A stretch of DNA of 64,000 nucleotides from NCBI GenBank assembly GCA_024278215.1, contig JAJRTR010000011.1, positions 25,583-89,582 of the forward strand, written 5' to 3'. Positions within the stretch are counted from its first letter, which is position 1, and the number at the start of each line of letters is the position of its first letter. Source of the DNA: a bacterium. GTDB lineage: Bacteria > UBP15 > UBA6099 > JAJRTR01. Positions 5,065-50,653 of the stretch are shown piece by piece. The translations under genes were made by a program, and so were the position numbers. A model generated the notes under the pieces. It was not told the origin of the DNA and searched no databases. It saw only the letters and a program-made list of their open reading frames with translations.

Positions 5065-8000
5065 TTAAAATACCCTGAGGTGTTTATCAATAGCGGTTCT
5101 CAAGTCGTCTTCAGAAAACGGTTTTGCCAGGAATTCATTTATGCCGACCTCGAACGCTTTGTTCCTGTCGGCGCTTTTAACATCCGATGTCACCATGATT
5201 ATAGGTATCCTGCTGGTGTCGGGTTTTGATCTGACTTTCTGTGTAAACTCATAGCCGTCCATGCGCGGCATGTTTATGTCAGTGACGATTACGTCGAATT
5301 TTCTTTCGGTAAGTTTCGTCAGCGCCTGCATCCCCGAGGAGGCGACATCTACGAAGTATCCGATTCGCTCGAGCATCTCGCGCTGTGCGATACGGCCCGA
5401 AAGGGAGTCGTCGACAAGCAGCACCTGTTTTGCTTCGGACATGGCGTCGAAGGCACCCCTGTCTTCCACCTTTTTCGATATATATGGTATTGAAGATACG
5501 ATGCCGGCCACATCAAGTATGAGAGCGATCGAGCCGTCACCGAATATCGTGGCACCGGACATGTGCTTTACGTCCCCGAGAAACGAGCCAAGGTTCTTGA
5601 TTACCACCTGCTGTTTTTCCAATACTTCGTCTACAATCAGCCCGAACTTCTTCTCCGCCTGGCCGAGTATTACGACGGGGAACGACCCTGTGCGTTTTTC
5701 CAGTTCGGGAAGGTCGTAGACATCACGCAGGTGCACGAGAGGTATCACCATTTCCTGGTGACGGTAGACCTCCTTGCCCTCGACGAAGGAAAGCTCATAT
5801 CTCGATACCTGCGCGGTGGATTCGATCGGGTCCATGGGGATGACGAATTTCTGGTTGTTGCATTTAACAATCATGGCCTGGATAATGGCAAGAGTCAGCG
5901 GCAGTTTGAGTTTGAGAGTCGATCCCATGCCGACTTCGGATAGTATATCGACAGTGCCTTTTAGTTTCGTGATGCTGTTTTTGACAACGTCCATACCGAC
6001 CCCCCGGCCCGAGAGGTCGGAAACCTTGTCTGTGGTGCTGAAGCCGGGTATGAATATCAGGTTCATCTTGTCGCGCGGCCCCATCGCGTCTGCCTCTTCC
6101 TGCGAGATCAATCTTTTTTCTATACATTTGCGGGCTATCATTTCAGGGTCTATACCCTTGCCGTCGTCCTGCACTTCGATCACGACGGAGTTGCCTTCGT
6201 GGTAGGCGCGCGCCCATATCGTTCCGTTTTCCTTTTTGCCGGACTCGCGGCGCCGTTCGCGTGTCTCTATGCCGTGGTCCACCGCATTTCGTATTATGTG
6301 CAGAAGCGGCTCTTCGATCTCTTCGATAAGTGTTTTGTCCAGCTCGGTGTCTTCGCCCTCGATGATAAAGTCGATTCGTTTTCCGAGGCTTTTCGCGATG
6401 TCCCTGACCCTGCGTGGAAATTTACTGAAAACGCCTGAAATCGGGAGCATCCGCAGCCGCATCGTTTCTTCCTGCAACTCTTCTATCATTCTTCCGATAT
6501 TCAGGGCATCGTCCTGGAACTCCGTGCTGAGGTGTTCGAACTCGGCTTTGAGTAAACTTACTTTTGTGAGCATATCCTTCAGGAGCGATTCCTGCTCGAG
6601 TTCCATATCAAAAAGCTGCGTGGTATTCTCGCGGATGATGCGAAGTTCCTTCATGTTCTCGAGAGTGCTTCGCTCGATGGCGCCCGCGCCGAGGTCGATC
6701 ATTTCCGGTTGCAGCGTCTGGAACGGTTTCATAATATCTTCGCGCGTGAGATTCCTCTCCTCGAGACCGGTGGACTTACTGCTGAACTTGAGATTGTCGT
6801 ACATTTCTCCCACGAGATTGACACCCTGTTTGAGTCTTTTTGTTTCCTGTTCCAGCTTATTGTGGTTGATGACGAGTTCGGCGATAAGGTTTACCAGCAC
6901 ATCGAGTTTTTCGGTGTCGACCCTTACGGTGGAGCGGGGAGCGGCCTTATCGGCTTTTTTCCGGGGCCTGCGCCCAGGCTTTCCCTGCGTCTGCCCCTGC
7001 GAAACTGCCGGATGTTCTTCTTCCGGCGCTTCAGCTTCAAGCGCAAGTTCGATTTCTTCGAATTCGACATCGCCGATTTTGAAAAGGTAAGAATACTTTT
7101 TATGGAATTCGTCGAAAGAAAGTTCCGTGGCGAACAGCAGGAAAAAGTCGTAGGCTGTAGCTTTTTTGCCCTTCTCGCCGAGTGCGATGATAAGAGCGGA
7201 AAGGTATTCGCCTTCTTCGGTGAGCGGTTTGAAGAATTCCGACATACTGGCAATGTCGCTCAGCTCGTTGAGTTTGTAAGCCATCTTGATCTGGAACACA
7301 TTTTTCGAATCGATGAGTGATTTTGCCAGAGTGCGTTTTTCATAGGGGGTGAAGAATTCGCCGGCCTCGTGATCGACGCTGAGATGTTTGAATATCTCGA
7401 CGGCGGCCTCCGCCGAGACATAATCTTTTTGTTTTCTCAGCGGCGCCATTATCGTATGGATTTTTTTCAGCAGTGAGTTTATGTCGGGCGGAGGCCCCGA
7501 TTTTCCGCGTGTGAGCCTGTATTCTATCAGGATTCCGGCATGTGACACGCTTTTGAAAATGCAATCGAGTGTGTCCATGTTTTGTTGGATCAGGCCCTCG
7601 CGCATTGCGTCGCGCAGGACGAGTATCCGGGTGAGTATCTCATTTACCGCCGGTTCGCCGTAACAGGTCAGTGTCCGGTGCAGGTAGGTAATGGAATCGA
7701 AGAGTTTATTTATGAAATTTTCGTTGTCCACGTTTTCGTCGGCAAGAATATATTTGCCGTCGATATCGTTAAAAATCTTGTGGCAGCGTTCGAGAGCAGT
7801 GCGGAGTTCTTCGCCGACTATTTCAAACAGGTTTGCTCTTGTGCCGGCGTCTGGAACTGCGATATTGGGGCCAGTGGGTTTTTCTTTCTTTTTCTCATGT
7901 TTTTTCGCGAATTTTTTTTCGGGTTTTTTGACCGTTACGTTTTGAGTTTCCGCCGCAGTGTCGTCTGCCGCGTCTTTTGCCTCGACGGGTTCAGGGGCGG

Positions 8001-8493
8001 ATTCTTCGGAGGGCGGTGGTTCCTGCGCGGGAGTGGGAGTGGGAGTGGGAGGTTCCTGCGCGGAAGGCTCTACGACCGGCTCGGGTTTTTCCGCATTTGG
8101 GGCGGGTTTCTGTTTTTGCGCTGCCGATATTGCGCCGGGCACGTAGGAGTCGTTCTCGATGCTGTCGAGAATAGCCTTAATGACATCGGCAAGGTCGAAA
8201 AACTGGTCCAGCAGGTCGCTGTCGATCTCCGGGAGTTTGTTTTTGAATTCCTCGAATATATCTTCTATGTGGTGGGCTATTTCGCTGATGTCCATGAATT
8301 CGACCATAGCCGACGAGCCCTTGATAGTGTGTACGTTTCGGGATATCCGGTTGAGAATCTCCTCGTCTGCTTCTCCCTGTTCGAGTGAGACGAGGTCCTG
8401 GTCAAGACTATCCATATATTCCTTGCATTCATCAAGGAACAGTTTGACGATTTTCGCGGTTTTGAACGATTTAGCCATTGTTTTCGCTGTCAC
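5065..8493 (-). CDS. cheA: Hybrid chemotaxis histidine kinase CheA with C-terminal receiver domain (WspE-like)
   Basis: HPt motif HTIKGSSAM; dimerisation domain; HATPase (IIRNAVDHGIE, DDGKGID); CheW-like P5; C-terminal REC (LLVDDSL...DINMPRMDGYEF). 1142 aa with a low-complexity P/T/K-rich linker. Confidence 0.85.
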   Translation of the reverse strand: MTAKTMAKSFKTAKIVKLFLDECKEYMDSLDQDLVSLEQGEADEEILNRISRNVHTIKGSSAMVEFMDISEIAHHIEDIFEEFKNKLPEIDSDLLDQFFDLADVIKAILDSIENDSYVPGAISAAQKQKPAPNAEKPEPVVEPSAQEPPTPTPTPAQEPPPSEESAPEPVEAKDAADDTAAETQNVTVKKPEKKFAKKHEKKKEKPTGPNIAVPDAGTRANLFEIVGEELRTALERCHKIFNDIDGKYILADENVDNENFINKLFDSITYLHRTLTCYGEPAVNEILTRILVLRDAMREGLIQQNMDTLDCIFKSVSHAGILIEYRLTRGKSGPPPDINSLLKKIHTIMAPLRKQKDYVSAEAAVEIFKHLSVDHEAGEFFTPYEKRTLAKSLIDSKNVFQIKMAYKLNELSDIASMSEFFKPLTEEGEYLSALIIALGEKGKKATAYDFFLLFATELSFDEFHKKYSYLFKIGDVEFEEIELALEAEAPEEEHPAVSQGQTQGKPGRRPRKKADKAAPRSTVRVDTEKLDVLVNLIAELVINHNKLEQETKRLKQGVNLVGEMYDNLKFSSKSTGLEERNLTREDIMKPFQTLQPEMIDLGAGAIERSTLENMKELRIIRENTTQLFDMELEQESLLKDMLTKVSLLKAEFEHLSTEFQDDALNIGRMIEELQEETMRLRMLPISGVFSKFPRRVRDIAKSLGKRIDFIIEGEDTELDKTLIEEIEEPLLHIIRNAVDHGIETRERRRESGKKENGTIWARAYHEGNSVVIEVQDDGKGIDPEMIARKCIEKRLISQEEADAMGPRDKMNLIFIPGFSTTDKVSDLSGRGVGMDVVKNSITKLKGTVDILSEVGMGSTLKLKLPLTLAIIQAMIVKCNNQKFVIPMDPIESTAQVSRYELSFVEGKEVYRHQEMVIPLVHLRDVYDLPELEKRTGSFPVVILGQAEKKFGLIVDEVLEKQQVVIKNLGSFLGDVKHMSGATIFGDGSIALILDVAGIVSSIPYISKKVEDRGAFDAMSEAKQVLLVDDSLSGRIAQREMLERIGYFVDVASSGMQALTKLTERKFDVIVTDINMPRMDGYEFTQKVRSKPDTSRIPIIMVTSDVKSADRNKAFEVGINEFLAKPFSEDDLRTAIDKHLRVF

Positions 8494-9320
8494 CTCGGCA
8501 CTTTTTGAAATGCCACAGAATCCTTGAGTGTAATCATTTTGAAACCGTCGGTGAGTCCCCTGATCATCTCGGTGGGGCCGAGAAAGAGATAGCCGCCGTC
8601 TTTCAAAGAGTCGTAAAACCTGTTCAGGATATCCGCTTTGGTTTCATCCCTGAAATATATCATCACATTTCTGCAGAAAATAATGTCGAAGTCTTTCTGA
8701 AAATAAGAGTCGGTAAGATTCGAATACTCGAACTCGACATATTTTTTTATTGATTCCCTGATAGCATAGTTGCCGTCACTGGGGGTAAAGTATTTTTGCA
8801 GGTATTCTTCGGGCAGGTTTTCGACGGAGCGTTTGGAATAGATACCCTGGAAGGCTCGCGCGAGCACCTCCGTCGATATGTCGGTCGCAAGGATTTCGAT
8901 GTCCCATATCGAGTGAAACTTCAGTGTTTCGAGGACACATATTGCGAGTGTGTAAGGTTCTTCGCCGGTCGAGCAGCCCGCGCTCCATATATTGAGGTTC
9001 CGGTTGTTCTGCGCGACTTTTTTATCTGTTATCTCAGGGAGGATGATTTTTCTGAAGCTGTCCATTTGAGAGTTGCTTCGATAGAAATATGTTTCATTTG
9101 TGGTAACGAGATTTATGAGTGTCGACAGTTCCGACCTGTCGTCTTCCGAGGCGATAACCAGCAGGTATTTGCCCAGGTCCGATATCCCCGACTCTTTGAG
9201 GCGTGTGTTGATCCTGTTGGAGAGAATGGGCAGCTTCGATTCGTTGAACCACAATCCGCAGGCGCGGAAAATAACGTCTCTGACCTTCAATATCTGGGAT
9301 TGTTCGAGTTGCTGCATCAT
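8490..9320 (-). CDS. cheR: Chemotaxis protein methyltransferase CheR
   Basis: CheR N-terminal domain plus SAM-dependent methyltransferase domain. 4-nt overlap with cheA. Confidence 0.8.
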   Translation of the reverse strand: MMQQLEQSQILKVRDVIFRACGLWFNESKLPILSNRINTRLKESGISDLGKYLLVIASEDDRSELSTLINLVTTNETYFYRSNSQMDSFRKIILPEITDKKVAQNNRNLNIWSAGCSTGEEPYTLAICVLETLKFHSIWDIEILATDISTEVLARAFQGIYSKRSVENLPEEYLQKYFTPSDGNYAIRESIKKYVEFEYSNLTDSYFQKDFDIIFCRNVMIYFRDETKADILNRFYDSLKDGGYLFLGPTEMIRGLTDGFKMITLKDSVAFQKVPR

Positions 9321-9698: not shown

Positions 9699-11188
9699 CA
9701 GTACTCACTCCCTTCGGTCGAATAGAGGCAGACCTTATTGCGACCCTCGGCTTTTGCTTTGTACAGCGCCTCGTCGGCCTTTGCTATCAGGTCAAGTCTA
9801 TTTGCGATGTCGTCGTCAGGGTGCCCGGCGACTCCCAGGCTTGCCTTTACGTGCAGTATTTCGTCTTTGTGTTTAAACTCGAAGCTCTCCAGAGAACTCC
9901 TTATTCTTTCCGCGACAACAGTTGCGTTTTTCTTGGGTGTTTCAGGCAGGATCACGGCAAATTCCTCGCCGCCGTACCTTGCCGCCAGGTCGATGTCCCT
10001 TACACATCTTTTCAGTATAAGAGCGATACCTTTCAAAATCATGTCTCCCTGCTGGTGTCCATAAGTATCGTTGAAATTTTTAAAATGATCTATATCGAGC
10101 AGGATCAGCGAAAGCGAGAGGTTGAATCGCCTTGCGCGGCTGTACTCTTTTTCGAGTTGTTCCTGGAAATACCGGTGGTTATGCAGTCCGGTCAGGCCGT
10201 CGGCTATTGCGTATCTTTTTATTCTTTCATACATTCTCAAATTGTCGAGGACAATCTGCGACTGGCCTGTGATGATATTGCACATTTCGATTTCGTCGTC
10301 CGAGAAAGGCCCCTGTTTGCCGCGGGCCATGGTATACATGCCGTACTTCTCTCCCTGCGATTCCAGCATAGCCATCTTGAGTCCGCGTATGGTGGTGCTG
10401 CCGTCGTCTTTGAGCATGTTGTGGTCCGGGTCATTCACCTCCACCTCGACATTGTCCCATTGTATATTGGTGATGCCGGAATTCTTTTTGTATTCGTTGA
10501 TCATGCTTTTTCTTGCTTCTTTGAAAAACTCTCTTGCCAGGGGGTTCTTGATGAAAACGAAAAGTTTGATCCTGTCCTCGTCGGTGATCAGGAAAATAGC
10601 GAGGTCGAAGTCGATGACGGAGGCGTAGAGGTCCGCGAGATAGCCACAGGTCGTGGGCAGGTCGTCGCGTCCTATTGCTATCTGATGAATCCTGTTTATC
10701 AGAGACATTTTGAAGAGTTGCGTTTCCTGAAGTTCACCCGCTTTGAAAATGACATCTTTTTCCTCGTCCAGTTCGATTTCAGGTAACGGTTTCGCGGGTT
10801 TCGGCTTTATTACCGCCACTTTTTTCACGCTTTCGAGAAGTTCTTCAACTTTATCCAGCAGGTCGTCGGGGTCGAACGGTTTGGTGAGATACTCGGTGGC
10901 GCCTGTTTCCATGCCCCAGTACTGGTCTTTCTTCTGGTCCCTTGCCGTGAGCATGACAATAGGCAACTCGGCGAAGTTCGGATCATTGCGCAGCATGCGG
11001 CAGACCTGCAAACCGCTGAGGTTCGGCATGTCGATGTCGAGAAAAAGGAGATCAAAATCCTTTTCCCGTATGACCTCCAGCCCCTGCACTCCGTCCGGAG
11101 CCGTCGTCACGCTGTAGCCGGCGCTCACAAGCACTTCCTCGAGCGATTTTCTTATTACCGGACTGTCGTCAACTACCAGTATATTCAT
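9698..11188 (-). CDS. Response-regulator diguanylate cyclase (REC + GAF-like + GGDEF), WspR-like
   Basis: N-terminal REC (ILVVDDSPVIRK...DIDMPNLSG). C-terminal GGDEF domain with an intact active site (RYGGEEFAV). Central GAF-like region. Confidence 0.8.
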   Translation of the reverse strand: MNILVVDDSPVIRKSLEEVLVSAGYSVTTAPDGVQGLEVIREKDFDLLFLDIDMPNLSGLQVCRMLRNDPNFAELPIVMLTARDQKKDQYWGMETGATEYLTKPFDPDDLLDKVEELLESVKKVAVIKPKPAKPLPEIELDEEKDVIFKAGELQETQLFKMSLINRIHQIAIGRDDLPTTCGYLADLYASVIDFDLAIFLITDEDRIKLFVFIKNPLAREFFKEARKSMINEYKKNSGITNIQWDNVEVEVNDPDHNMLKDDGSTTIRGLKMAMLESQGEKYGMYTMARGKQGPFSDDEIEMCNIITGQSQIVLDNLRMYERIKRYAIADGLTGLHNHRYFQEQLEKEYSRARRFNLSLSLILLDIDHFKNFNDTYGHQQGDMILKGIALILKRCVRDIDLAARYGGEEFAVILPETPKKNATVVAERIRSSLESFEFKHKDEILHVKASLGVAGHPDDDIANRLDLIAKADEALYKAKAEGRNKVCLYSTEGSEY

Positions 11189-26530: not shown

Positions 26531-26803
26531 TTCCTTTTTTCAGCAATGCGATTTTGTCCCTGAATCGCACTTCAGAAACGAATTCCTCTGTAAGGATTCT
26601 AACAGTTTTACTTGATTATTAAAGTTGTTTCCGTTAAAAGTACTACAAAGGCGACTATATTCGTTTGGAATTCGGCGCTATCGCGATTTCCTCAAATGGA
26701 TAATCCGGGAAAGATTATATTTTTCCTTATTATAAGTGAAAGGTTGAAGACAAAAACACAGTTGATAATAAAGCGGGAAAATGAGAAAATTAAGGAGCGG
26801 AAA

Positions 26804-27844
26804 ATGAGAAATGTAAAAGAACAGATTCTTGCGGCAATAATAATTGTGGCTTTGCTTACGATTGCACATACGGCGTGGGCGGAGATAATTCCGGGCCAGA
26901 GTGTGGGCAAGCTTGTCGTGGAAAGCGCGAGCGGCGAAGAGGTGAATCTTGGAGATTACGGTAAACCTTTTATCCTCGCTTTTTTTGTGCCGAATAAGGA
27001 GGAAGACACGAAGCAGATGAAAGCGCTCAAAGAAATTCTTGTCAAGAAGAAACATAATAAATATACCGTTTTTGCAATCACGCGGGGAAAAAACGATGCT
27101 GAGAAGGCGGTTGCGGTAAACTTCATGAAACAGAACGGGCTTGATTTCGAGTTGCTGTTCGACTCTCGCGCAAAGGCCGCGCGAAAGTTTGAAAACAGGG
27201 TCTTTCCCACGTTCTATGTTTTTGACGAAAGAGGTATCATGAAGGCTGCTTCTTTGAATACTGTTACAGAACCCAACCGAAGACTGACGTTCGAGGACTT
27301 CCTTGATTATGTGACCGAAGGCCGTGAAATACCGTTTGTCGATTTCATACCGTACCCGCCGGAAAACCGCCGGAGCAAGACCGCTCACGGACTGCTGGGA
27401 AAAACCGCTCCGGATTTTACTCTGCCGGACACCTATGGACGTATGCACGCGCTGTCTGATTACAGGGGTGAGAAGAATGTCATACTTATCTTCTGGAGCA
27501 CGACCTGCCCGCACTGTCTGAAAGAGTTGCCGCTGGTCCAGAGTTTCTACCTGACTCACAGGCTGAAAGACAATTTCGAGGTTCTCGCCGTGACAACTGT
27601 CAAGGGCGAGAGCGGACTAAAAAAGCTGAAATCCCTGATAAAGAAAAATATGTTTACTTTTATCACGCTCAACGACGAACAGAATGTGTCGGAAATGTAC
27701 GGAGTACGCTATGTGCCGATGGCTTTTTTCATAAACAAGGATGGCGTAATAGTGGATTACCTGTCGGGAGAGAACAAGTATTTCGGGCAGGTTTACAACT
27801 CTATATTCGCGGACCCCAACAGGCTCGGCGAGAAAAAAAAGTGA
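26804..27844 (+). CDS. Exported tandem thioredoxin-like (TlpA/redoxin) protein
   Basis: Start at 26804 (RBS AAGGAG). Signal peptide. Two redoxin-like domains; the second carries CPHC, the first lacks a CxxC. Confidence 0.65.
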   Translation: MRNVKEQILAAIIIVALLTIAHTAWAEIIPGQSVGKLVVESASGEEVNLGDYGKPFILAFFVPNKEEDTKQMKALKEILVKKKHNKYTVFAITRGKNDAEKAVAVNFMKQNGLDFELLFDSRAKAARKFENRVFPTFYVFDERGIMKAASLNTVTEPNRRLTFEDFLDYVTEGREIPFVDFIPYPPENRRSKTAHGLLGKTAPDFTLPDTYGRMHALSDYRGEKNVILIFWSTTCPHCLKELPLVQSFYLTHRLKDNFEVLAVTTVKGESGLKKLKSLIKKNMFTFITLNDEQNVSEMYGVRYVPMAFFINKDGVIVDYLSGENKYFGQVYNSIFADPNRLGEKKK

Positions 27845-35304: not shown

Positions 35305-36729
35305 ATGTCGAAAAAAAAGACGGACAACAGAAAAACCGGCGAATCAACAAAACTATGGGGCGGTCGCTTCGAGGAATCGACAAACCGCGCCGTGGAGGCC
35401 TTCTCGGCATCGGTGCATTTCGACTGTGAACTCGCTCTCTTCGACATAATGCAGTCTAAAGCGCACGCGACGATGCTGTGCGAGTGCGGCCTGATAAACA
35501 AGACGGAACTGAAGTCGATTCTGAAAGGACTCGACACGATCCGGGCCGACATCGACAGCGGCGAGTTCGTGTTCTCGCCCGCACTCGAGGATGTGCACAT
35601 GAACATCGAGTCGAGGCTCGCGCAGATTGCGGGCCCGGCCGCGGGCAAGCTCCACACCGCCCGCAGCCGCAACGACCAGGTTGTCACCGACCTGAAGATG
35701 TATATAAAACACGCTGTGGAAAAAATAATCGGCGGTGTGAGGGATGTGCAGGCGGCGCTTGTCGAGCAGGCGCGGCGCCACGAGTCGACGGTGATGCCCG
35801 GATACACGCATTTGCAGAGGGCGCAGGCTGTGCCGCTGGGTCATCACCTGATGGCGTATTTCTGGATGCTGGAGCGTGACGCCGGCAGGTTCGCCGATTG
35901 CGCGGTGCGGATGGACACCCTGCCGCTGGGCGCGTGTGCGCTGGCAGGCTCGGCCCTGAAGACGGACCCGGGAATTGTCGCGCGCGAACTCGGCTTCAAA
36001 TCCATCGCCGAGAACAGTATGGACGCAGTCGCCGACCGCGACTTCCTCGTCGAATATCTCTCGGCTTGCGCGATCCTGATGATACACCTGGGCAGGAGTT
36101 GCGAGGAATTTATTATCTGGATGAGCACGGAATTCGATTTCGTGACTTTCCCCGATTCGCTCTGCACCGGCAGCAGCATCATGCCGCAGAAAAAGAACCC
36201 GGATGTTGCCGAACTCATCAGGGGCAGGAACGGTCGTGTGACCGGCGCGCTCGTATCACTGCTGACAACGCTCAAGGGGCTGCCGCTCACTTACAACAGG
36301 GACCTTCAGGAAGACAAGGAGCCTGCGTTCGACGCGACAAAAACAATATTGACATCGCTGGAAGTCTACGCGCTGCTCGTGCGCGGCGCGGCGTTCAATA
36401 CCGCGCGACTCGCGGAATCTACGGCGGACGGTTTTCTCAATGCCGTGGACATAACCGATTATCTCGTGAAAAAAGGGATGCCGTTCAGGGAAACGCATCA
36501 TGTGGTGGGACGGCTCGTAAAGAGGGCGACGGATGCCGGGCGCAGGAATTTCAATGATTTTACACTGAAAGATTTCCGGGCCGAGTCGGATAAGTTCGAT
36601 GAAGATGTTTTTAAAATTCTCGATCCCGCCAAAGGCGTCAAAAGCAGACGCGGTCGCGGCGCGGCGAGCCCGGCGGATGTTCGCAGGCAGATAAAAAAAG
36701 CGGAAAAGATACTGGCACGGAATAAATGA
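35305..36729 (+). CDS. argH: Argininosuccinate lyase
   Basis: TKLWGGRF...; fumarase/aspartase-family signature region. 474 aa. Confidence 0.9.
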   Translation: MSKKKTDNRKTGESTKLWGGRFEESTNRAVEAFSASVHFDCELALFDIMQSKAHATMLCECGLINKTELKSILKGLDTIRADIDSGEFVFSPALEDVHMNIESRLAQIAGPAAGKLHTARSRNDQVVTDLKMYIKHAVEKIIGGVRDVQAALVEQARRHESTVMPGYTHLQRAQAVPLGHHLMAYFWMLERDAGRFADCAVRMDTLPLGACALAGSALKTDPGIVARELGFKSIAENSMDAVADRDFLVEYLSACAILMIHLGRSCEEFIIWMSTEFDFVTFPDSLCTGSSIMPQKKNPDVAELIRGRNGRVTGALVSLLTTLKGLPLTYNRDLQEDKEPAFDATKTILTSLEVYALLVRGAAFNTARLAESTADGFLNAVDITDYLVKKGMPFRETHHVVGRLVKRATDAGRRNFNDFTLKDFRAESDKFDEDVFKILDPAKGVKSRRGRGAASPADVRRQIKKAEKILARNK

Positions 36730-37559
36730 TTGATTTTACAAATCTCATAAGTTTCTTTGAAAACTTCACCGTCTGGGACGGCGTGCGCTCTGTTATCGAG
36801 ATCACGATCATCAGCCTCGGCATATACTACCTTCTGCTGTTCCTTCAGAGGACGCGCGCCGTGGCGATCTTAAGAGGACTCGCGCTGCTGTTCCTTTTCG
36901 CCGCGGCGTCTTATGTCCTGCAACTCAACACGATTTTTTTCATCCTGAAGGGACTCGGCGCGGTCACGATCATCATCCTTCCGATTATATTCCAGCCCGA
37001 ACTTCGCCGCGGCCTCGAACAGATGGGCCAGCGCGGCCTGTGGCAGCGCAGGTTCGGCGGACTCGAAAAGGAACAGATAATAAAACTTATTCATTCGCTC
37101 GTGCTTACGCTCGAGGACCTTTCGATTGTGAAAATGGGTGCGCTGATTGTGCTCGAACAGGAATCGAAACTCGATGAATATTCGCGTTCGGGTACAAAAC
37201 TCGACGCCCTGCTTACGCCGGAACTTCTGAAAACAATCTTCTTCCCGCACACGTTCCTTCACGATGGGGCCGTGCTGGTGCGGGGCGACCGTGTGATGGC
37301 CGCCGGTTGTTTCCTGCCTCTGTCGGAGAATCCGAATCTGCCACAGGATGTAGGCTCGCGACACAGGGCCGCGCTCGGCATATCGGAAGTGACCGATGCC
37401 GTCGCGCTCACTGTTTCCGAGGAGACCGGCCGCATCTCTCTATCCCACAACGGGAAACTCATCCAGGACATCAAACCCGATGCCCTGCGCGAACTGCTTT
37501 ATTCGATTTGCTTCCCGCAGGGAACGACATTTTCTTCGCCCATTGGGAGTGACGATTGA
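36726..37559 (+). CDS. cdaA: Diadenylate cyclase CdaA (DAC domain, membrane-anchored)
   Basis: 3 N-terminal TMs; DAC motifs LHDGAVLVRGD, GSRHRAALGISEVTDA, VSEETGRIS. ATGA overlap with argH. Confidence 0.85.
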   Translation: MIDFTNLISFFENFTVWDGVRSVIEITIISLGIYYLLLFLQRTRAVAILRGLALLFLFAAASYVLQLNTIFFILKGLGAVTIIILPIIFQPELRRGLEQMGQRGLWQRRFGGLEKEQIIKLIHSLVLTLEDLSIVKMGALIVLEQESKLDEYSRSGTKLDALLTPELLKTIFFPHTFLHDGAVLVRGDRVMAAGCFLPLSENPNLPQDVGSRHRAALGISEVTDAVALTVSEETGRISLSHNGKLIQDIKPDALRELLYSICFPQGTTFSSPIGSDD

Positions 37560-38746
37560 GAAAAAAGATACTGAACAACTGGCGCTACAAAGTTTCCGCA
37601 ATAGTGATATCCACATTGCTGTGGCTCTTCATATATTCCGAACATCAGCCCCGCTTCAGGGCGGATTATCCCGTGAATATTCAATATCTGAACCTGCCGA
37701 TTTCGCTCCGGCTCGTCGACAGGGAAGACGTATTGAGAATAAGACTTCAGGGTGAACCGGCAGCACTCAATAACGTGAATAATGAAACCCTGAAAGCCAC
37801 TGTCGACCTGGCCGGGCTGGGCGAGGGAATCCACCGCGTGCAGGTCAAAGTCTTCAACAGCACCGGCGCGCGGCTCGTTCGTCGAAACCATAATGTGCAG
37901 GTCGAACTCGAAAAGCTCAACAGCATCGAAATGCCTGTCAAACTGGGCTTCTTCGGCTCTCTTCCGGTAGGCATGCGGCTCGGCCACGTTACCTTTACTC
38001 CTGAAAAAGTCGTCATCTACGGCCAGACCGACGAACTGGCGCTTGTCCATCTCGTTGTCGCGAATATCGACCTGACGGAAAAGCAAAAGACTTTTCGTGT
38101 TAATGTGCGCCTGTCGGCGGTCGACGACCAGGGCGTTCCGCTCGACGATACTGTGAAGATCGATCCTGAAAGGATTACCGCCGTTGTTCCGGTGAAAAAA
38201 GAATTCGTCAAGGTTGTGCCCATTACGCCCAGGTTTAAAAAGGGGTCCGGGAAAGGCGGGTTCTCGGAGGCGGATTTCTACCCGACTGTCGTCAATCTCG
38301 TCGGCAACGAAGACGCGCTACGGGATATTAAAACTATAGAGACCGAAGAGTTCGACCTTTCGCGCTGCGAAGAGGGCGGCGTCTTCCCGCTCAGGCTGGA
38401 TACACCCAGAAATGTATTCGCAAATGTCGATCGTGTTACTCTCTCATGCAGGTCCGGTCAGGAAATAACACTATCCTTCCTCGTGAATATAAAAGTACTC
38501 AATCTGTGCGAAAACTGCACGTATCAATTAATTCCGAAAAAAATGAAAGTGACTATTACGGGACCTGACAACAAAGTTAATCAGATAAATATCTCGCAGA
38601 TATCCGCGGTTGTCGATGCGCTGGGACTCAAAGAGGGCACACACGACGTGCGATTGCATGTGGAACTCTCGCCGGGTGTCGAAAACGCACAGCTCGACTT
38701 CAATCGGGATAAAGTGAAACTGGTGATTTCGAAGAAAGAGGAATAG
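37556..38746 (+). CDS. cdaR: CdaA regulatory protein CdaR (YbbR-like repeats)
   Basis: N-terminal TM plus repeated YbbR-like beta domains; conserved position between cdaA and glmM. Confidence 0.75.
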   Translation: MRKKILNNWRYKVSAIVISTLLWLFIYSEHQPRFRADYPVNIQYLNLPISLRLVDREDVLRIRLQGEPAALNNVNNETLKATVDLAGLGEGIHRVQVKVFNSTGARLVRRNHNVQVELEKLNSIEMPVKLGFFGSLPVGMRLGHVTFTPEKVVIYGQTDELALVHLVVANIDLTEKQKTFRVNVRLSAVDDQGVPLDDTVKIDPERITAVVPVKKEFVKVVPITPRFKKGSGKGGFSEADFYPTVVNLVGNEDALRDIKTIETEEFDLSRCEEGGVFPLRLDTPRNVFANVDRVTLSCRSGQEITLSFLVNIKVLNLCENCTYQLIPKKMKVTITGPDNKVNQINISQISAVVDALGLKEGTHDVRLHVELSPGVENAQLDFNRDKVKLVISKKEE

Positions 38747-38751
38747 CATCA

Positions 38752-40113
38752 ATGGGAAATGGTAAAACCCGCAAGAAGATATGTTTCGGCACGGACGGCA
38801 TAAGAGGAGTAGCCAACAGCGAACTCACGCCGGAAGTGGCCCTGCTGATAGGAAAATGCACGGCGCACCAGTTGTGCAATGGCGCGGAGGGCCGCGTGAT
38901 GGTGGCAAAAGACACACGTGTTTCCGGCGACATGCTCGAAGCCGCGCTCGTCGCCGGTATCCTCTCCACCGGCGCGGATGTCTGGCGCATCGGCATCGCC
39001 CCCACCCCGGCACTTGCCTATCTCACAAACATTCGCAATTGTGATTGCGGGCTCATGATCTCCGCCTCTCACAATCCCGTCGAAGACAACGGCATAAAAG
39101 TTTTTTCAGGGAAAGGCTACAAGCTCGATCAATCCGTCGAAGACTGCATCGAGTCGCTTATGTGTGATTGCGGTGCCTCGTGCCGCGCGGTCGGCGGCGA
39201 CGGTGTCGGATATTCGATCAATAAATCTAATATCACCGGAGAATATGTCGACTTTGTGCGCGGTCTGCTCGAAGGTGTCCATTTCGACAAACCTGTTGTT
39301 GTCGATTGCGCCTATGGCGCCGCGTCGCGCTCAGCAAAACGTATCTTTAAAAATGTTTCCGCTGAAATGATTTTCATGCACAGCGATGAAGACGGAAAGA
39401 AAATAAATGTCGATTGCGGCTCGACCCGGCCCGGGTCGCTACAGAAGAAAGTGCTCAAACACGGCGCGGCGCTCGGTTTCGCGTTCGACGGCGACGGCGA
39501 CAGGGTGATTTTCGTAAACGAAAAGGGAGAAGTCGTCGACGGCGACCAGGTCATGCTCCTGTGCGGACGCAAGTTCATCAAAGACGGGAGGCTCAAGGGC
39601 AACACCGTCGTCTCAACCGTAATGAGCAACATGTCGCTTGAAAAAGAGATAGCAAAACTCGGCGGAAAAATGCTGCGCACTCCTGTGGGCGACAAATATG
39701 TCCTGAGGGAAATGAAAAGAAATGGCTATATACTCGGCGGCGAGCAGTCGGGCCACATAATTTTTCTCGACCGCTCGACCACCGGCGACGGGCTTCTCAC
39801 TGCCGCCGAAGTCCTCAAAATCGTCACAGAAGACGGTCGCCCTTTCTCCGAGCAGACACTGCTCGAACGCTCGGCGCAGTTCCTGAAAAATGTCCGTGTG
39901 CCCGACAAAGAATCATTCTATGAAAGCAAAGTTATCTCCGCGAAAGTCAGCGAAATCGAGAACCGGCTTGGAGAAAGCGGCAGGGTGGTTGTCCGCCCTT
40001 CGGGCACCGAACCGCTGATTCGCGTCATGGTCGAGTCATGGGACAAAACCGTCGCGGAAGCATACACCGACGAAATAATTGATACAGTAAAAAACGTGTT
40101 TGAATTGAGTTGA
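38752..40113 (+). CDS. glmM: Phosphoglucosamine mutase GlmM
   Basis: GTDGIRG; active-site loop SASHNPVEDNGIK. 453 aa. Confidence 0.9.
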   Translation: MGNGKTRKKICFGTDGIRGVANSELTPEVALLIGKCTAHQLCNGAEGRVMVAKDTRVSGDMLEAALVAGILSTGADVWRIGIAPTPALAYLTNIRNCDCGLMISASHNPVEDNGIKVFSGKGYKLDQSVEDCIESLMCDCGASCRAVGGDGVGYSINKSNITGEYVDFVRGLLEGVHFDKPVVVDCAYGAASRSAKRIFKNVSAEMIFMHSDEDGKKINVDCGSTRPGSLQKKVLKHGAALGFAFDGDGDRVIFVNEKGEVVDGDQVMLLCGRKFIKDGRLKGNTVVSTVMSNMSLEKEIAKLGGKMLRTPVGDKYVLREMKRNGYILGGEQSGHIIFLDRSTTGDGLLTAAEVLKIVTEDGRPFSEQTLLERSAQFLKNVRVPDKESFYESKVISAKVSEIENRLGESGRVVVRPSGTEPLIRVMVESWDKTVAEAYTDEIIDTVKNVFELS

Positions 40114-44698: not shown

Positions 44699-45001
44699 AT
44701 GGATATTTCTGTTAAAAAAGAGGGGTCGGTTGTGTATATCACACCGGAAGAGGAAATCCACTTCGATAATTATAAACAACTCGAAGAAGAGATTCTCAAG
44801 GAGATAGAAGAAGGTGCCAGGGAGATAGTGCTGGATTTGACCAACGTGGAAACCCTTTACAGCATGACGCTTGGGATGTTCAACAACATAGCAACGCTGA
44901 TAGCGAGGAAGGGCGGGGATTTCGCGCTGACCAACATAAATAAAGACATTAGAAAAGTCATGAAAGCCACGAGGCTTGATAAGATTATTACTGTAAAATA
45001 A
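44699..45001 (+). CDS. STAS-domain anti-sigma-factor antagonist (SpoIIAA/RsbV-like)
   Basis: 100 aa with STAS fold features, including a conserved Ser/Thr region (TLYSMTLG). Confidence 0.65.
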   Translation: MDISVKKEGSVVYITPEEEIHFDNYKQLEEEILKEIEEGAREIVLDLTNVETLYSMTLGMFNNIATLIARKGGDFALTNINKDIRKVMKATRLDKIITVK

Positions 45002-45092
45002 TATTCAAAACCGGACTCTAATTGCATACCGACCCGAAAATTTCTGTTGCGATATATAAACGGCAATCGACTTTTCTGAAAGACAGGAAAAA

Positions 45093-46010
45093 ATGGGATT
45101 GAAAAAGTATCACATTCTGGTAGCCGACGATTCGCGTTCGGTTCGCGCATTTTTCGAGGATGTTTTCGCAAAGAAGGATAACTACGAATCGCAGTTTGCG
45201 GCTTCGGGAGAGGAAGCTGTCGAAATCTTCAGAAAAAGCATCAGCGGCGAGATAAAACCTTTCGATTTCGTTCTTTCCGACATCAGCATGCCCGGCATGA
45301 ATGGATTTGAAACACTCGAAGAGATAAAGAAACTCGATCCCAACGTCAAGACAGGAATGATCACAGGATTCAATGTCGATGATTACATAAAAATGGCGCT
45401 CGACAAGGGCGTATATAATATTATTTGCAAGATGGACAGTCCGGCGGAGATTGTCAGAACTGTAGACAATCTCATCACAGGCGAGAACTTGATGGGAATT
45501 GAAAATTACCTCGCACCCGGAACAGAAATTAAAAAAGTCAAGGTAAACCATACCTCTGAATTGAAAGTTGTGGTAGGTGAAATACTGGATTTCTGCAGCG
45601 ACATGCTTGACGAAGAAAAACAGTACGGGCTCAAGACCGGCCTTGTCGAAATGGGCACAAACGCTATTTATCATGCCTACGGTTACGAAAAAGGCTCCCA
45701 GGTGGAGCTGAAGTCTACAGAGGAAGTATATATCCAGTACGGCGCGGACGACGACTGCCTGGTTGTCGTGATTGCCGACACGAGCGGAACACTGACCAGG
45801 GAAAAAGTGTTGTCGCAACTCAACAAGTGCATAAATCCGAGTCAGGAAGACCTTGTCGCATCCGGCGGAAGGGGCCTGTACCTGACCCGCTATCTTTGCG
45901 ACAAAGTCATTGTCAACCTCGAAAAGAAAAAACGTACCGAAATGGTTCTGATCATGAATTTTAATAACGACCAGATCGAAAACAAGCCTCTTCTTGTCAA
46001 TCAGTTCTGA
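45093..46010 (+). CDS. Response regulator fused to an anti-sigma regulatory factor-type Ser kinase (REC + HATPase_c_2, RsbW/SpoIIAB-like)
   Basis: REC (ILVADDSRSV...DISMPGMNGF). The C-terminal GHKL region (EMGTNAIYHAY...VVIADTSG...GGRGLYL) resembles RsbW-type kinases. Confidence 0.6.
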   Translation: MGLKKYHILVADDSRSVRAFFEDVFAKKDNYESQFAASGEEAVEIFRKSISGEIKPFDFVLSDISMPGMNGFETLEEIKKLDPNVKTGMITGFNVDDYIKMALDKGVYNIICKMDSPAEIVRTVDNLITGENLMGIENYLAPGTEIKKVKVNHTSELKVVVGEILDFCSDMLDEEKQYGLKTGLVEMGTNAIYHAYGYEKGSQVELKSTEEVYIQYGADDDCLVVVIADTSGTLTREKVLSQLNKCINPSQEDLVASGGRGLYLTRYLCDKVIVNLEKKKRTEMVLIMNFNNDQIENKPLLVNQF

Positions 46011-46086: not shown

Positions 46087-48252
46087 ATGATTGTGTTGGA
46101 TACCGTGCGGCGGCGGATGGCGACAATGAGCACAAGACATTTTATTCGCATTGTTATTATCACCGTATTTGCGGTGTCTATATGCCGGTGCGCGAAAAGC
46201 ATCGTCACCAACGAACCGCGTCCGGAGATATACTGGGAATTCTCAGACAGGAATAATCCTGTTGCCATCGAGAAAGTAATAGTGCGTTTTGACGGCGAAG
46301 ATGTAAGCGAGTACGCGGACACGGAATCGTGGCGGATAAGCTACAGGCCACTCGAACCGCTCGCGCCGGGCGAACACGATGCGGTAATCGTGATCTACGA
46401 CAACTTCGGGAAGAGAGCGGAGCGAGCGTGGAAGATCGTGGTCGATCCCGATGCGCCGGACACCATCAGTCCTCGCGTTGAATTCGTCGAACCGTCCCCG
46501 GCATACGGCGCTGTGCTGAATTCCGGGAGCGGTATTGCCATAGCCGCTGAAATAACGGACATGGGCGGCAGCGGGGTGGTCGAAGACACTGTTTCCATCA
46601 GAACATTTAAAGACGGTTATCTTAATAAAGAAATATGCAATTTCCCGAGGTATCTCGACGGGAAGATAAGTTGCAGCCTGTGTCGCCTGCACACGGGAAT
46701 ATACAGGATTTTCATATCCGCCCGTGATCATGCCGGCAACAAATCGGCTGAAAAAGAACTCTTTTTCTCCGTAGATTCCACAAAGCCTTCGATGGTCGAC
46801 TTTAAGCTTGAACCGGAAACGGTGGGACCCGATGACGAGATCGTCGTTGCCGCGAATCTTTATGACATACCCCCTGAAAATCTGTCGCAGTGGTTTGTTC
46901 GTGTTCTGAACCCGGAAGGTAAGACGGTGAAAGAATTCGGCGCGCCCGCAATAGAAGGGGAAAACACCCTTCGGTTCAGAGGTTTCGAGATAGAGGATAA
47001 TCCGCGCGGATCGTACAGGATAAAGGCTTATGTCGAGGACAGCGCGGGCAACATGACCGAATCCCCTTTTACGGCTGATATTGTCGTCCGGCCGGGAGAT
47101 GTTGCCGATAAGCATCCCACCGGTGCCGGCGCGGACAAAACGGGACCGGAAGCCATAGTGCCGGTGCCGCCTGATATGCCGGGCCCGCTGCCCGAACCGA
47201 ATATTGAACCTTATGCAGGCAGTGAACATGCCGCCGCCGGTATTTTCCCCGATCCGACATCCTGGGCCGGTGATACCGGTGATTCAAATAAACTGCCCGA
47301 AGACGACAAATCCAAATACAAGACCGAAAAGGAGATCGTGATCCTGCGCACGGACGCCGCACTGCCGGAATCGTCACATGAACCGTCGAACGATACCGCG
47401 CCGCCTTCGATAATTTCCATTTCTCCCCGGGACGGACTTACCACCGACAACATGTCGCCGGACATATCGTTCGGGTTCGAGGACATCGGCGGCGCGGGAG
47501 TAGACATTGCTTCTGTCCGGCTGGTGCTCGACGGAGAAGATCATTCTGAAGAAATCGAGATTAAAAAGAACAGTGCGATATACCGTCCGCCGGAACCGCT
47601 TGCGCCGGGGAGGCATATTGCCGAAGCCGGTGTCTCGGATTCCATCGGTAATGTCGCCTCAAAGAAATGGTCGTTCACCATAGCGCCCCGGTCAATAGTG
47701 GACTTATCGCCGCCTTCGGTTTCCTTCGTCTACCCGCCTCAAAATTTCATTACGAACAACAGGGTGGTGATGCTCAAGGCTGATCTGCGGGATAATGTTT
47801 CCGTGGATATGGACAGCATCACACTGACATTGGATATGAAAGATGTGTCTGTGGACGGGTTGTGCGTCGTAGACAAAAAAAACAAACTTATATGCCGTCT
47901 TGTGCTCGATGAAGGGAAACACAGGGTGTCGGTCTCGTGCTCGGACGATGAAGGCAACAGAAGCTCGGCGGCGCTCGCGCTTACTGTGGATGTCACAGCG
48001 CCCGAGACGATCATCACCAGCCATTTCGAGGGGCAGAAAGTTGCCGGGGATAAGATCGAACTTTCGGGCCGCATCTACGATATGTACGGTCATCCCGTGA
48101 AGGTCACAGTGGACGGACTGCCCGCGGAAGTCGACGCTAATTACTGGACCGTCGACAAACTGCCGATCAAACCGGGAGTGAATAATATTCAGATAATATC
48201 GAAAGATTCCGCGGGCAATATCGGCGAATCATCTATCACCCTTTATCACTAG
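46087..48252 (+). CDS. Exported multi-domain Ig-like (Big/cadherin-like) repeat protein
   Basis: N-terminal hydrophobic/lipoprotein-like segment ending in Cys; 721 aa of repeated beta-sandwich-like modules (motif ...RDHAGN / SDSIGN / KDSAGN repeated). Confidence 0.5.
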   Translation: MIVLDTVRRRMATMSTRHFIRIVIITVFAVSICRCAKSIVTNEPRPEIYWEFSDRNNPVAIEKVIVRFDGEDVSEYADTESWRISYRPLEPLAPGEHDAVIVIYDNFGKRAERAWKIVVDPDAPDTISPRVEFVEPSPAYGAVLNSGSGIAIAAEITDMGGSGVVEDTVSIRTFKDGYLNKEICNFPRYLDGKISCSLCRLHTGIYRIFISARDHAGNKSAEKELFFSVDSTKPSMVDFKLEPETVGPDDEIVVAANLYDIPPENLSQWFVRVLNPEGKTVKEFGAPAIEGENTLRFRGFEIEDNPRGSYRIKAYVEDSAGNMTESPFTADIVVRPGDVADKHPTGAGADKTGPEAIVPVPPDMPGPLPEPNIEPYAGSEHAAAGIFPDPTSWAGDTGDSNKLPEDDKSKYKTEKEIVILRTDAALPESSHEPSNDTAPPSIISISPRDGLTTDNMSPDISFGFEDIGGAGVDIASVRLVLDGEDHSEEIEIKKNSAIYRPPEPLAPGRHIAEAGVSDSIGNVASKKWSFTIAPRSIVDLSPPSVSFVYPPQNFITNNRVVMLKADLRDNVSVDMDSITLTLDMKDVSVDGLCVVDKKNKLICRLVLDEGKHRVSVSCSDDEGNRSSAALALTVDVTAPETIITSHFEGQKVAGDKIELSGRIYDMYGHPVKVTVDGLPAEVDANYWTVDKLPIKPGVNNIQIISKDSAGNIGESSITLYH

Positions 48253-48465
48253 CCCGCGTGAAAACATGACGTTTCACCTCCACTCTTTGCCATTTTCATG
48301 TGCTGAATATAGAATGTATTTCTCGAAACATAACGGTATGCGCATGTTTTGTTGCAATACCGGGAAATGTTCGCGGAGAGCGGCCTCCGGTCCGTGTCGC
48401 AAGGGAAACTGCCTCGCGGGATCACAGCCGGTCCCGCCTGTGGAAACAATTACGCGAAAGCTGGA

Positions 48466-49143
48466 ATGAACATGGTAGACCTTTTCATAAAAGGCGGCTT
48501 CATGATGTACCCGATAGTCGCCTGTTCGCTGATCGCCCTGACGATAACCTTCGAGAGAATATTTTACATCATTAGCGCCACGTCGAAAAACAATAAATTC
48601 ATCGACGAAGCGCGCCGCATAAGTGACGACGATCCGGACCGTCTGACGAAAATAAGGGAAATCGCCGGGCGCGTACAGTGCCCGGTGTCCATGCTCGTCG
48701 CGGCGGCAATAGACAACAGGTGCGAACCGGAAGGTAAAAGAAACACAATCCTGTGGCGTGTCGGCTCGAACCTGAGGCGCGACCTCGAACGTTTCGTCAA
48801 CACGCTCGGCATCATCGCGCATATCACCCCGCTGATGGGACTTCTCGGCACGGTAATCGGCATGATACGCGCTTTCATGATTATACAGGCGCTCGGCGGC
48901 CAGGTGGACGCTTCCGATCTCGCGGGCGGCATCTCCGAGGCGCTCATCACCACCGCCGCGGGGCTCGCGGTAGCGATTCCCGCTATGATCTTCTACCACT
49001 TTGTCGATGGCCGTGTTGATAAAATCGAAGCGACCATGAAGGATTCGGCAGTAATATTCCCGGAAATAATGGGCTACTATTCCGTCGGCGGCGGGGACGA
49101 TAAAAACAGGGCGAAACAGGATAAGGACAGCAGCGCGAACTGA
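48466..49143 (+). CDS. exbB: MotA/TolQ/ExbB proton-channel protein
   Basis: 3-TM MotA/TolQ/ExbB pattern (GLLGTVIGMIRAF...AGGISEALITTAAGLAVAIPA). Start taken at the internal Met at 48466. Confidence 0.8.
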   Translation: MNMVDLFIKGGFMMYPIVACSLIALTITFERIFYIISATSKNNKFIDEARRISDDDPDRLTKIREIAGRVQCPVSMLVAAAIDNRCEPEGKRNTILWRVGSNLRRDLERFVNTLGIIAHITPLMGLLGTVIGMIRAFMIIQALGGQVDASDLAGGISEALITTAAGLAVAIPAMIFYHFVDGRVDKIEATMKDSAVIFPEIMGYYSVGGGDDKNRAKQDKDSSAN

Positions 49144-49562
49144 TGGAATTCGAAGGCAGAAAAAAAATTGATATGCACGTCGACATCGCGCCTCTTGTCG
49201 ACATAGTTTTCCTGTTGCTGCTTTTCTTCCTGCTAACATCGAAGTTCATCAAGCAGCCGGGCATGAAGATAGACCTGCCCAGGGCACAGGCGGCACGACA
49301 ACAGGACAGGCAGGACATCATCGTTTCCATCACCCGCGACGAAAGATATTTTCTCAACGGCGCACCGCTCGATGTGATGGATGTACGCTCCGCACTGTGC
49401 GAAAAGATAAAGGCAAACGAGCGAAAGATCGTCATTATAAAAGCGGACAAAAAAACACCGCTTCAGCCTGTGGTGTCGGTGATGGATTACTCGAAGCAGT
49501 GCAGCGCGAACGGAGTCACTATTTCCACAAAACTTAATTCCGGCGCTGCTCCTGGTCCATGA
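49143..49562 (+). CDS. exbD: Biopolymer transport protein ExbD/TolR
   Basis: 139 aa with an N-terminal TM (VDIAPLVDIVFLLLLFFLL) and an ExbD periplasmic domain. Confidence 0.8.
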   Translation: MEFEGRKKIDMHVDIAPLVDIVFLLLLFFLLTSKFIKQPGMKIDLPRAQAARQQDRQDIIVSITRDERYFLNGAPLDVMDVRSALCEKIKANERKIVIIKADKKTPLQPVVSVMDYSKQCSANGVTISTKLNSGAAPGP

Positions 49563-49584: not shown

Positions 49585-50472
49585 TTGAAAGAATATCTCC
49601 CCAGAAAAAGTTTCCTGACGAAATCCGGTGTTGTCCTTTCCATCGTTTTGCATATTCTCGTGTTCTCGATCCCGGTAGCGCTTGTCGTCAGGCCGCCCGA
49701 CCCGAATAAGGAGAGAAAAGTCGAACTCATCTTCGAAAAACCCCGGCAACAGGCACCAAAACCAAAGCCCGCGCCTCCGAAACCAAAGCCAAAACCGAAA
49801 CCCGTGCGAAAAATCAAACCGCGACCAAAACCGCCGCCTGAGCCGCCTGAGCCGAAACAGCAAGCCGCCGAGCCGAAATCGCCCATCGAGGCCGCTGTAG
49901 CCGACGCAGGCGGCATCGACATCCCCACCGGACCCGCTTATGAAGAAGTGTATGTGCCGCCGCCTTATGTTCCCGCATGTGGAAACGGCGTGCTCGACGA
50001 CGGCGAAGAATGCGACGATGGCAACACCACAGACGGCGACGGCTGCGCTGCCGGGTGCGCACTGGAATATACCCCCGGTTGCGGCAACGGTGTGCTGGAC
50101 GCGGGCGAAGAATGCGACGACGGCAACAACGCAGACGGCGATGGCTGCTCCGCCGGGTGCCTCGATGAAGTCTATAGGCAAAACCTGCTTGCCGAATATC
50201 AGAAAAGCATACTTCTGACAATTGAACGGAATAAGAAATACCCGCCGGCGGCGCGGCGGCGCGGCATACAGGGAGCGGCGAAAGTTAGATTCGACATCGC
50301 GGCAGACGGAGCAGTCAGCGGCGTCGCGCTCGACAAAACTTCCGGGTACGACATACTCGATCGTGAAGCCCTCGCCACCATCACTCGCATAGGCCGCTTC
50401 GCCCCCATTCCCGAACCGCTCGATATGCCGCGGATGGAGATTTCCGTTGCCATCGTTTTCCGGCTCCAGTAA
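49585..50472 (+). CDS. tonB: TonB-like energy transducer with two inserted cysteine-rich ([16 protein letters not shown]..DGDGC) repeats
   Basis: N-terminal TM; Pro/Lys-rich spacer; C-terminal TonB domain ([22 protein letters not shown]...). Between them, two tandem ~31-aa Cys-rich repeats. Confidence 0.7.
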
Positions 50473-50653
50473 GATATAATTATCCTGAGGGTGCCATGTA
50501 CAAAATTCTTTTTCCGGCAATGACAAATGGCTGCCGAATAGGTGATGGAAATTGTGTTTTTCAGGATTTTATGGTATCCTGAATTCTTGTGAAACAACAA
50601 AAACGACACTGTGAATAATACCTGATGACAACTTATATAATGGGGGCTTGTAA

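Follow-up and report, generated by a model that had tools for sequence, protein, structure and literature searches.

The linker of TonB proteins is mostly regarded as a plain proline rod; why, then, does one TonB carry two cysteine-rich units between that rod and its C-terminal domain? The question is raised by the tonB gene at 49585..50472 of a 64,000-nucleotide stretch of contig JAJRTR010000011.1 (GenBank assembly GCA_024278215.1), which is called the window below. The way in which the linker of TonB transmits force is still debated, and a natural TonB with folded modules in series with the rod would be a test case for linker stiffness and length in energy transduction. The domain combination is rare and undescribed and is found in an uncultured lineage; both of its parts belong to known families. 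The reading favored here, with a probability of about 0.55, is that the protein is a conventional ExbB–ExbD-driven TonB, the linker of which contains spacer modules made rigid by disulfides and Ca2+. The gene and its product are laid out as follows.

49585..50472, + strand: tonB, 295 amino acids, TTG start, stop codon included (open reading frame list, Pfam, NCBIfam)
49621..49686, + strand: N-terminal membrane anchor, residues 13-34, a helix in the AlphaFold2 (AF2) model, with S19-x3-H23
49738..49878, + strand: Pro/Lys-rich and then Pro/Glu-rich extended spacer, residues 52-98, from sequence
49879..49965, + strand: clade-specific motif starting SPIEA-x6, residues 99-127
49978..50058, + strand: Cys-rich unit 1, C132-C158, matched by TIGR02232 and PF13948
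50059..50079, + strand: inter-unit linker of seven residues, ALEYTPG (the JGI orthologue P0002 has the similar MLEYVPA)
50080..50160, + strand: Cys-rich unit 2, C166-C192, matched by TIGR02232 and PF13948
50161..50469, + strand: TonB C-terminal domain, residues 193-295, a long helix (192-216) followed by a globular alpha/beta domain

A preliminary description, made from the letters of the DNA, had named the protein a TonB, and family models and fold both bear this out. Pfam TonB_C (PF03544) matches residues 216-294 (E 4.8e-17, 62.6 bits against a cut-off of 24.6), and NCBIfam TIGR01352 (tonB_Cterm) scores 56.4 bits against a cut-off of 27.1. In the full-length AF2 model the C-terminal domain has a predicted local distance difference test score (pLDDT) >90 and the membrane helix is also modelled well; the spacer at residues 52-98 is without predicted secondary structure. 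A Foldseek search with this model finds the TonB C-terminal domain of H. pylori (E 1.8e-7, 32% identity, template modelling score 0.74, root-mean-square deviation 1.8) as well as TonB domains from solved complexes with BtuB, FhuA, FoxA and TbpA, and TolA domain III ranks below these TonB domains with a worse deviation. The best score on the E. coli-type TonB equivalog models (NF008081-NF008084, cut-offs 265-448) is 31.4 bits against 265. Judged by its sequence, the protein is best classed as a TonB family member that is not an equivalog of enterobacterial TonB.

The membrane anchor of E. coli TonB bears S16 and H20 in a Ser-x3-His motif. The corresponding S19 and H23 of the window TonB are invariant in 7/7 sequences of a repeat-free alignment (A3). 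As the N-terminus ahead of the anchor is basic (K2, R7, K8, K13), the remainder of the protein after the anchor should be periplasmic.

The presence of two Myxococcus-type cysteine-rich repeats, and their location between the Pro/Lys spacer and the C-terminal domain, were likewise recovered by profile scan. TIGR02232 (myxo_disulf_rpt) matches two stretches of the TonB (E 4.6e-19, 67.9 bits against 20.8), as does Pfam DUF4215 (PF13948; E 3e-12, 47.1 bits against 27). Both units have the spacing C-x10-C-x10-C-x3-C and are identical at 23 of 27 residues; the cysteine-rich modules total 61 residues with eight Cys. A six-frame scan of the window and of the related loci found no further unit of TIGR02232 type.

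In the DNA, the units correspond to an 87-nucleotide direct repeat (49972-50058 and 50074-50160) with 84% identity and a start-to-start distance of 102 nucleotides (34 amino acids). The tandem duplication that had been proposed is therefore a real direct repeat, but its period is 102 bp (34 amino acids) and not ~93 bp, with a conserved core of 27 amino acids. Tandem Repeats Finder makes no call on the unit duplication, because there are just two copies separated by a diverged linker, and it is the direct repeat search and the alignment that reveal it. An assembly artefact was considered and rejected: the copies are ~15% diverged and independent assemblies have the same layout, whereas the copies of a duplication made in assembly should be identical and should be confined to a single assembly. 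Two units are present at the same place, with a similar linker, in the orthologues from JGI 3300033148 and GCA_042565665.1.

The history of the pair was traced by comparing the unit-pair regions of three genomes.

49972-50160: unit pair of the window
10367-10549: unit pair of the related locus L001
8759-8935: unit pair of the related locus L002

Compared within a gene, units 1 and 2 have a nucleotide identity of 0.85 (window), 0.86 (L001) and 0.65 (L002); for units of different genomes the range is 0.67-0.78. Third codon positions give a like pattern, and those of the two copies within a gene are 70-78% alike in the window and L001. Thus the copies are closer to each other within the gene than at orthologous positions in two of the three genomes, and those of the third have diverged to 65%. 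In P0002 and the orthologue P0003, the first units share EVEE.EQC and the second units share VLD.GE.C. These patterns indicate that the two-unit state is old and suggest that the copies have been partly homogenised by gene conversion, or re-duplicated, in some lineages.

What kind of module is the unit? A search of the PDB with a single sequence gives pappalysin-1 and pappalysin-2 at about E 1e-3, and ADAM17 and a disintegrin weakly. Along its full length, a profile of 73 units matches PAPP-A2 with E 1.9e-7 and PAPP-A with E 3.5e-6, at residues 947-976 in the M3 domain, and it also matches the first 16 positions of the ADAM17 disintegrin domain (E 1.3e-3). The acidic core is invariant across the 73 aligned units, this core being partly imposed by the pattern used for their selection. 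In AF2 models of the full protein made with eight sequences, the units have pLDDT <50; with a 114-sequence alignment of multi-repeat proteins, the units are modelled at pLDDT ~84-90 with almost no secondary structure. Foldseek comparison of the latter model with the PDB gives PAPP-A and PAPP-A2 at a probability of 0.99 (44-46% identity, root-mean-square deviation 2.6-2.7, 39 columns), and the remaining matches are only ADAM and snake-venom disintegrin domains at non-significant E 0.5-7.

Residues 944-995 of PAPP-A lie in M3, a small coil-and-strand connector between large domains, for which there is evidence of two Ca2+ ions and which has intradomain disulfides (PMC9579167). In ADAM proteins the shoulder consensus XCGN(X)3EXGEXCD constitutes the buried structural Ca2+ site II, and the ADAM arm is rigid due to disulfides and Ca2+ (PMC4885070). 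Residues A131-D144 and G165-D178 of the window TonB both fit this consensus with Asp at the first Glu, at which most clade members have Glu. The unit is most probably a small knot that is predicted to bind Ca2+ and to be cross-linked by disulfides, a fold suggested by homology to PAPP-A M3 and by the ADAM site II motif. An EGF-like fold, which the preliminary description had attached to this repeat class, was rejected. Each unit has four Cys against six, and no EGF family in Pfam or NCBIfam and no EGF structure in the PDB is among the matches; the closest solved relatives are M3 of PAPP-A and PAPP-A2 and the N-terminal Ca2+ site of the ADAM disintegrin domain.

The homologue search covered 5.8 billion protein clusters and recovered the window's own protein. 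Full-length TonB relatives at 39-49% identity were found in independent assemblies, those at 44-49% with one or two units placed as in the window TonB, and every aligned full-length relative has a unit at the same position, including P0008, P0012 and P0077, which are unflagged by Pfam. The number of units varies within the clade as follows.

Two units: the window TonB, P0002, P0003 and P0008 (shortened units)
One unit: P0011, P0012, P0052 and P0077
One unit, found in the search with the C-terminal domain: P0127 and P0134
No unit: P0269, which keeps the GIDIPTG..YEE motif and has PKPKPKPEPKPK, with an extra PKPKPEPKPK stretch, at the position of the units

In P0008 (L003 1208-1333) both units are shortened, keeping the CGNG..GEECD half and lacking the DGN...GDG loop, the loss of which explains why Pfam misses them. 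The first half-site, which would be the ADAM-type Ca2+ site, seems to be under the strongest constraint.

The preceding clade-specific motif (residues 99-127) has many columns that are invariant among clade members, and the patterns GGIDIP[TS]GP and [AV]YEE[VIA]Y[VL]PP were found essentially in clade members only in genome and metagenome collections. This motif lies directly before the cysteine-rich units, and a role as contact site for ExbD or peptidoglycan would be a guess. Patterns drawn from a four-sequence alignment (A4) hit one contig, that of P0008, among 185,579 GTDB species genomes, and the same in JGI metagenomes. The clade is small and rare.

That such repeats are not expected in an energy transducer is in line with the survey, in which the combination is rare. 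When the C-terminal domain (residues 193-295) was compared with 1.84 billion representatives, the unit was present in 4 of the best 150 TonB proteins, and these four are the closest single-domain matches. A repeat-free clade profile retrieved 60 further TonB proteins, none of which (0/60) has the unit and most of which have zero to two Cys. The highest-scoring matches to the C-terminal domain are P0121-P0126, proteins of 490-890 amino acids with 3-5 tandem TonB_C domains, a further unusual layout in the TonB family that has no relation to the cysteine-rich units; among the top representative matches, multi-domain proteins have 3-6 TonB_C copies each. Literature on DUF4215, TIGR02232 and TonB with cysteine-rich repeats yielded no study of a TonB with a TIGR02232 repeat.

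The variation in unit number raises the possibility that the units are neutral passengers, i.e., products of lineage-specific domain shuffling in an insertion-tolerant linker, without a selected function. The retrieved homologues have linkers of widely differing length and composition, P0269 has no unit, and the Pro-rich region of E. coli TonB was reportedly found by Larsen et al. in 1993 to be deletable with activity kept under standard conditions. This explanation is nevertheless doubtful: the Cys and the acidic core are intact in proteins with just 45-54% identity between the matched stretches of their C-terminal domains, and the two-copy state has been maintained or homogenised in three lineages. 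The persistence of the units and of the two-copy state indicates purifying selection on the fold.

Which motor drives this TonB, and which partner might it serve? The genes directly upstream are as follows.

48466..49143, + strand: exbB, Pfam MotA_ExbB E 2.9e-28, likely ATG at 48466 or 48472 within the open reading frame 48349-49143
49143..49562, + strand: exbD, Pfam ExbD E 1.7e-31, its start overlapping the exbB stop
46087-48252, + strand: Big_13 protein, 721 amino acids, four Big_13 Ig-like domains and a Glucodextran_B-like C-terminal domain

The exbB start was deduced from the L002 orthologue, which begins MIELFQKGGFMMYP. The window ExbB is 55-83% identical to the tonB-adjacent gene product of related loci, and ExbD is 71-77% identical to the orthologues encoded directly 5' of tonB in L001-L008. 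The order exbB-exbD-tonB is contiguous in the window, L001, L002, L003-L005 and L006, with other flanking genes differing at each locus; by tblastn, exbB and exbD adjoin tonB in all five of the closer relatives. There is no conserved linkage of tonB to genes other than exbBD. A promoter-like site (48287-48315) 5' of exbB and a terminator-like hairpin (50560-50583) 3' of tonB are compatible with a three-gene unit, although shuffled sequence has sites of this kind at least as often. The gene downstream of tonB encodes an alpha-glucan phosphorylase, and tblastn searches with this phosphorylase and with the Big_13 protein gave no match in 10 related loci.

Two distant one-unit TonB proteins, P0077 and P0134, are orphans that are not encoded beside exbBD. 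The distant one-unit loci are the following.

7451-8897: distant one-unit TonB locus L010
5765-7177: distant one-unit TonB locus L009

The P0077 gene lies divergently beside a Tad/Flp pilus locus. That of P0134 lies directly 3' of a corrinoid adenosyltransferase gene of cobA/cobO/btuR type, a position that could point to a connection with B12 uptake.

These arrangements bear on the idea that the units form a binding surface recruiting TonB to an unusual envelope partner, for which the preliminary description had named the Big-repeat protein. Elsewhere the TIGR02232 class belongs to large proteins that are secreted or exposed at the surface, and it has been reported in a diatom adhesive-trail protein, the units are kept in at least four clusters at 50% identity, and the Big_13 gene lies directly upstream in the window, its product bearing at the N-terminus a hydrophobic signal or anchor that lacks a canonical lipobox. 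Docking of this kind is still unlikely. The Big protein has no homologue in 10/10 related loci and the flanking genes differ everywhere, so that this candidate partner can be set aside; a promoter-like site, of a kind no commoner than chance, separates its gene from exbB. Nor do the units themselves look like a dedicated binding surface, with their number in the clade being 0, 1 or 2 and with no TonB-clade-specific conserved positions outside the family-wide core.

A Tol-like or motility-type (Glt/Agl-like) envelope motor, in which the protein would be an analogue of TolA or GltJ, is highly improbable. ExbB and ExbD score slightly higher on the TolQ and TolR models than on the ExbB and ExbD models, with all scores below cut-off, and there are weak matches of the TonB protein to tolA_full (E 2e-7) and GltJ (E 0.006); the absence of a TonB-dependent receptor nearby and the Tad pilus locus beside the distant P0077 could also be taken in this sense. 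The tolA_full match (30.6 bits against 59.45) is however limited to the low-complexity Pro/Lys region and the GltJ match (NF033761, 15.7 bits against 450) to the Pro-rich region, no tolB or pal lies downstream, and the C-terminal domain is closer to TonB than to TolA domain III in both sequence and fold.

The favored reading, a conventional TonB with spacer modules, may be pictured as follows. The N-terminal helix with S19-x3-H23 would couple to the ExbB/ExbD proton motor encoded directly upstream, and the Pro/Lys rod would cross the periplasm. Between this polyproline rod and the C-terminal domain that binds the TonB box, one or two small Ca2+-binding, disulfide-locked modules would have been acquired. 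Each 27-residue unit, with its CGN-x3-[DE]-x-G-E-x-C-D Ca2+ site and four Cys, would fold as a compact knot, and the knots would act as a stiff spacer that resists unfolding, adds reach and relays the pull to the C-terminal domain, which would bind outer-membrane receptors by strand addition. Binding of receptor TonB boxes and energising of transport by the window TonB are predicted. Spacer modules are favored because the unit number varies and a Pro/Lys stretch replaces the units in P0269, because conservation within the TonB units is confined to the structural core, with the remaining positions varying, because the closest solved relative is an inter-domain connector, and because the unit forms long arrays elsewhere. 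In the TonB units, no position is invariant outside the Cys, Gly and acidic core common to the whole family.

Four points weigh against this reading. Linker length is not constant, members with 0, 1 and 2 units having 233, 246-254 and 274-295 amino acids, so that a strict 'length ruler' is unsupported. Neither the 64-kb window nor the listed genes of the related loci include a TonB-dependent receptor. In the literature on TIGR02232 and DUF4215, function is described as unknown or is not addressed, and no bacterial biochemistry is reported. Finally, periplasmic disulfide formation cannot be assumed in what appears to be an anaerobic-digester lineage.

On the last point, an exported protein is encoded at 26801-27844 (+ strand), with a signal-peptide-like N-terminus MRNVKEQILAAIIIVALLTIAHTAWA and two AhpC/TSA-Redoxin thioredoxin-fold regions. 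The second of these has a CPHC motif, the same active-site dipeptide as in E. coli DsbA. The product is a candidate periplasmic thiol-disulfide oxidoreductase which could serve the eight-Cys TonB linker, and periplasmic thiol-disulfide chemistry would thus be at least encoded nearby.

The same residues allow for an environmental switch, in which the stiffness or length of the linker would follow how far its Ca2+ sites are filled or its eight Cys oxidised, and outer-membrane transport would be gated in this way by periplasmic Ca2+ or redox conditions. Ca2+-ligand motifs are present in both units, PAPP-A M3 binds two Ca2+, the eight Cys are invariant and lie in a periplasmic segment, and the apparent digester origin, judged from names only, and the exported CPHC protein also speak for it. 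Such a switch is improbable, as the Ca2+ of the homologous ADAM site is buried, permanent and not removed by EDTA, and is thus structural rather than regulatory (PMC4885070). P0008 has in addition lost the second acidic loop of the unit. The broader notion of a conditional force transducer, in which periplasmic Ca2+ or oxidative disulfides would set linker stiffness, reach or partner choice, has a similarly slim chance; if true, outer-membrane transport would be coupled to the environment, or the motor would be directed away from TonB-dependent transporters to another substrate, in a lineage that is uncultivated.

In practical terms little is gained for now, with a rare clade, uncultured organisms and a role that is most likely structural, so that the value is modest. 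The finding would gain weight if the units gate or redirect energy transduction. It also provides a first concrete context and structural assignment for DUF4215/TIGR02232, a widespread repeat family without established function.

As to the lineage, the closest named relative of the window argininosuccinate synthase is that of 'bacterium ADurb.Bin236' (70% identity), and the related contigs are apparently from anaerobic-digester metagenomes, as judged from names only (ADurb.Bin236, AMR_MDS_2097). A stand-alone tRNA-Thr_ED gene (threonyl-tRNA synthetase editing domain) lies close to the TonB orthologue in L002 (10008-10433, - strand). Bacterium ADurb.Bin236 has SepRS fused to a tRNA-Thr_ED-type domain (PMC5424206). 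The tRNA-Thr_ED finding is consistent with the window and the related genomes being one lineage.

Elsewhere in the window, a STAS-domain protein of anti-sigma-antagonist type and then a protein with receiver and HATPase_c_2 (RsbW-like) domains are encoded at 44699-46010 (+ strand), just 5' of the Big_13 gene; the pair looks like a partner-switching module. At 36726-40113 (+ strand), 3' of the gene for argininosuccinate lyase, lies a cdaA (DAC domain)-ybbR-glmM trio, a classic cyclic di-AMP cyclase operon.

The window TonB can be placed among known systems by each of its parts. Like the TonB proteins of E. coli and H. pylori, it has the S-x3-H anchor, the Pro-rich spacer, the C-terminal fold and the exbB-exbD-tonB gene order; unlike canonical TonB, it has cysteine-rich modules and a clade motif between the spacer and the C-terminal domain. 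In multi-TonB_C proteins and in Myxococcus GltJ and GltG, the TonB C-terminal domain is likewise combined with other modules, but none of these has the cysteine-rich unit. TIGR02232/DUF4215 repeats (IPR011936) share the C-x10-C-x10-C-x3-C spacing and the acidic core with the TonB units. They are normally seen in arrays of 3-9, in large secreted proteins from Myxococcota, other Deltaproteobacteria, Nitrospirota and further groups, whereas the TonB clade has just one or two, and the window TonB two, set into the linker of an energy transducer that is anchored in the membrane.

The shoulder (Ds) of ADAM proteins and P-III snake-venom metalloproteinases has the XCGN(X)3EXGEXCD consensus in common with both TonB units. 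It can be aligned with the first half of the unit only, the second half (DDGN..GDGC..C) being unlike the disintegrin fold. The closest counterpart is M3 of PAPP-A and PAPP-A2 (8a7d, 7ufg, 8sl1), which gives a full-length profile match and the best structural match and, like the predicted unit, is a small disulfide-bonded, Ca2+-binding connector. PAPP-A M3 differs from the TonB units in being a single copy in a eukaryotic secreted metalloprotease, where it joins beta-sandwich domains and has no force-transmission role; in the window TonB, the related module would stand in the path of force between a proton motor and the outer membrane.

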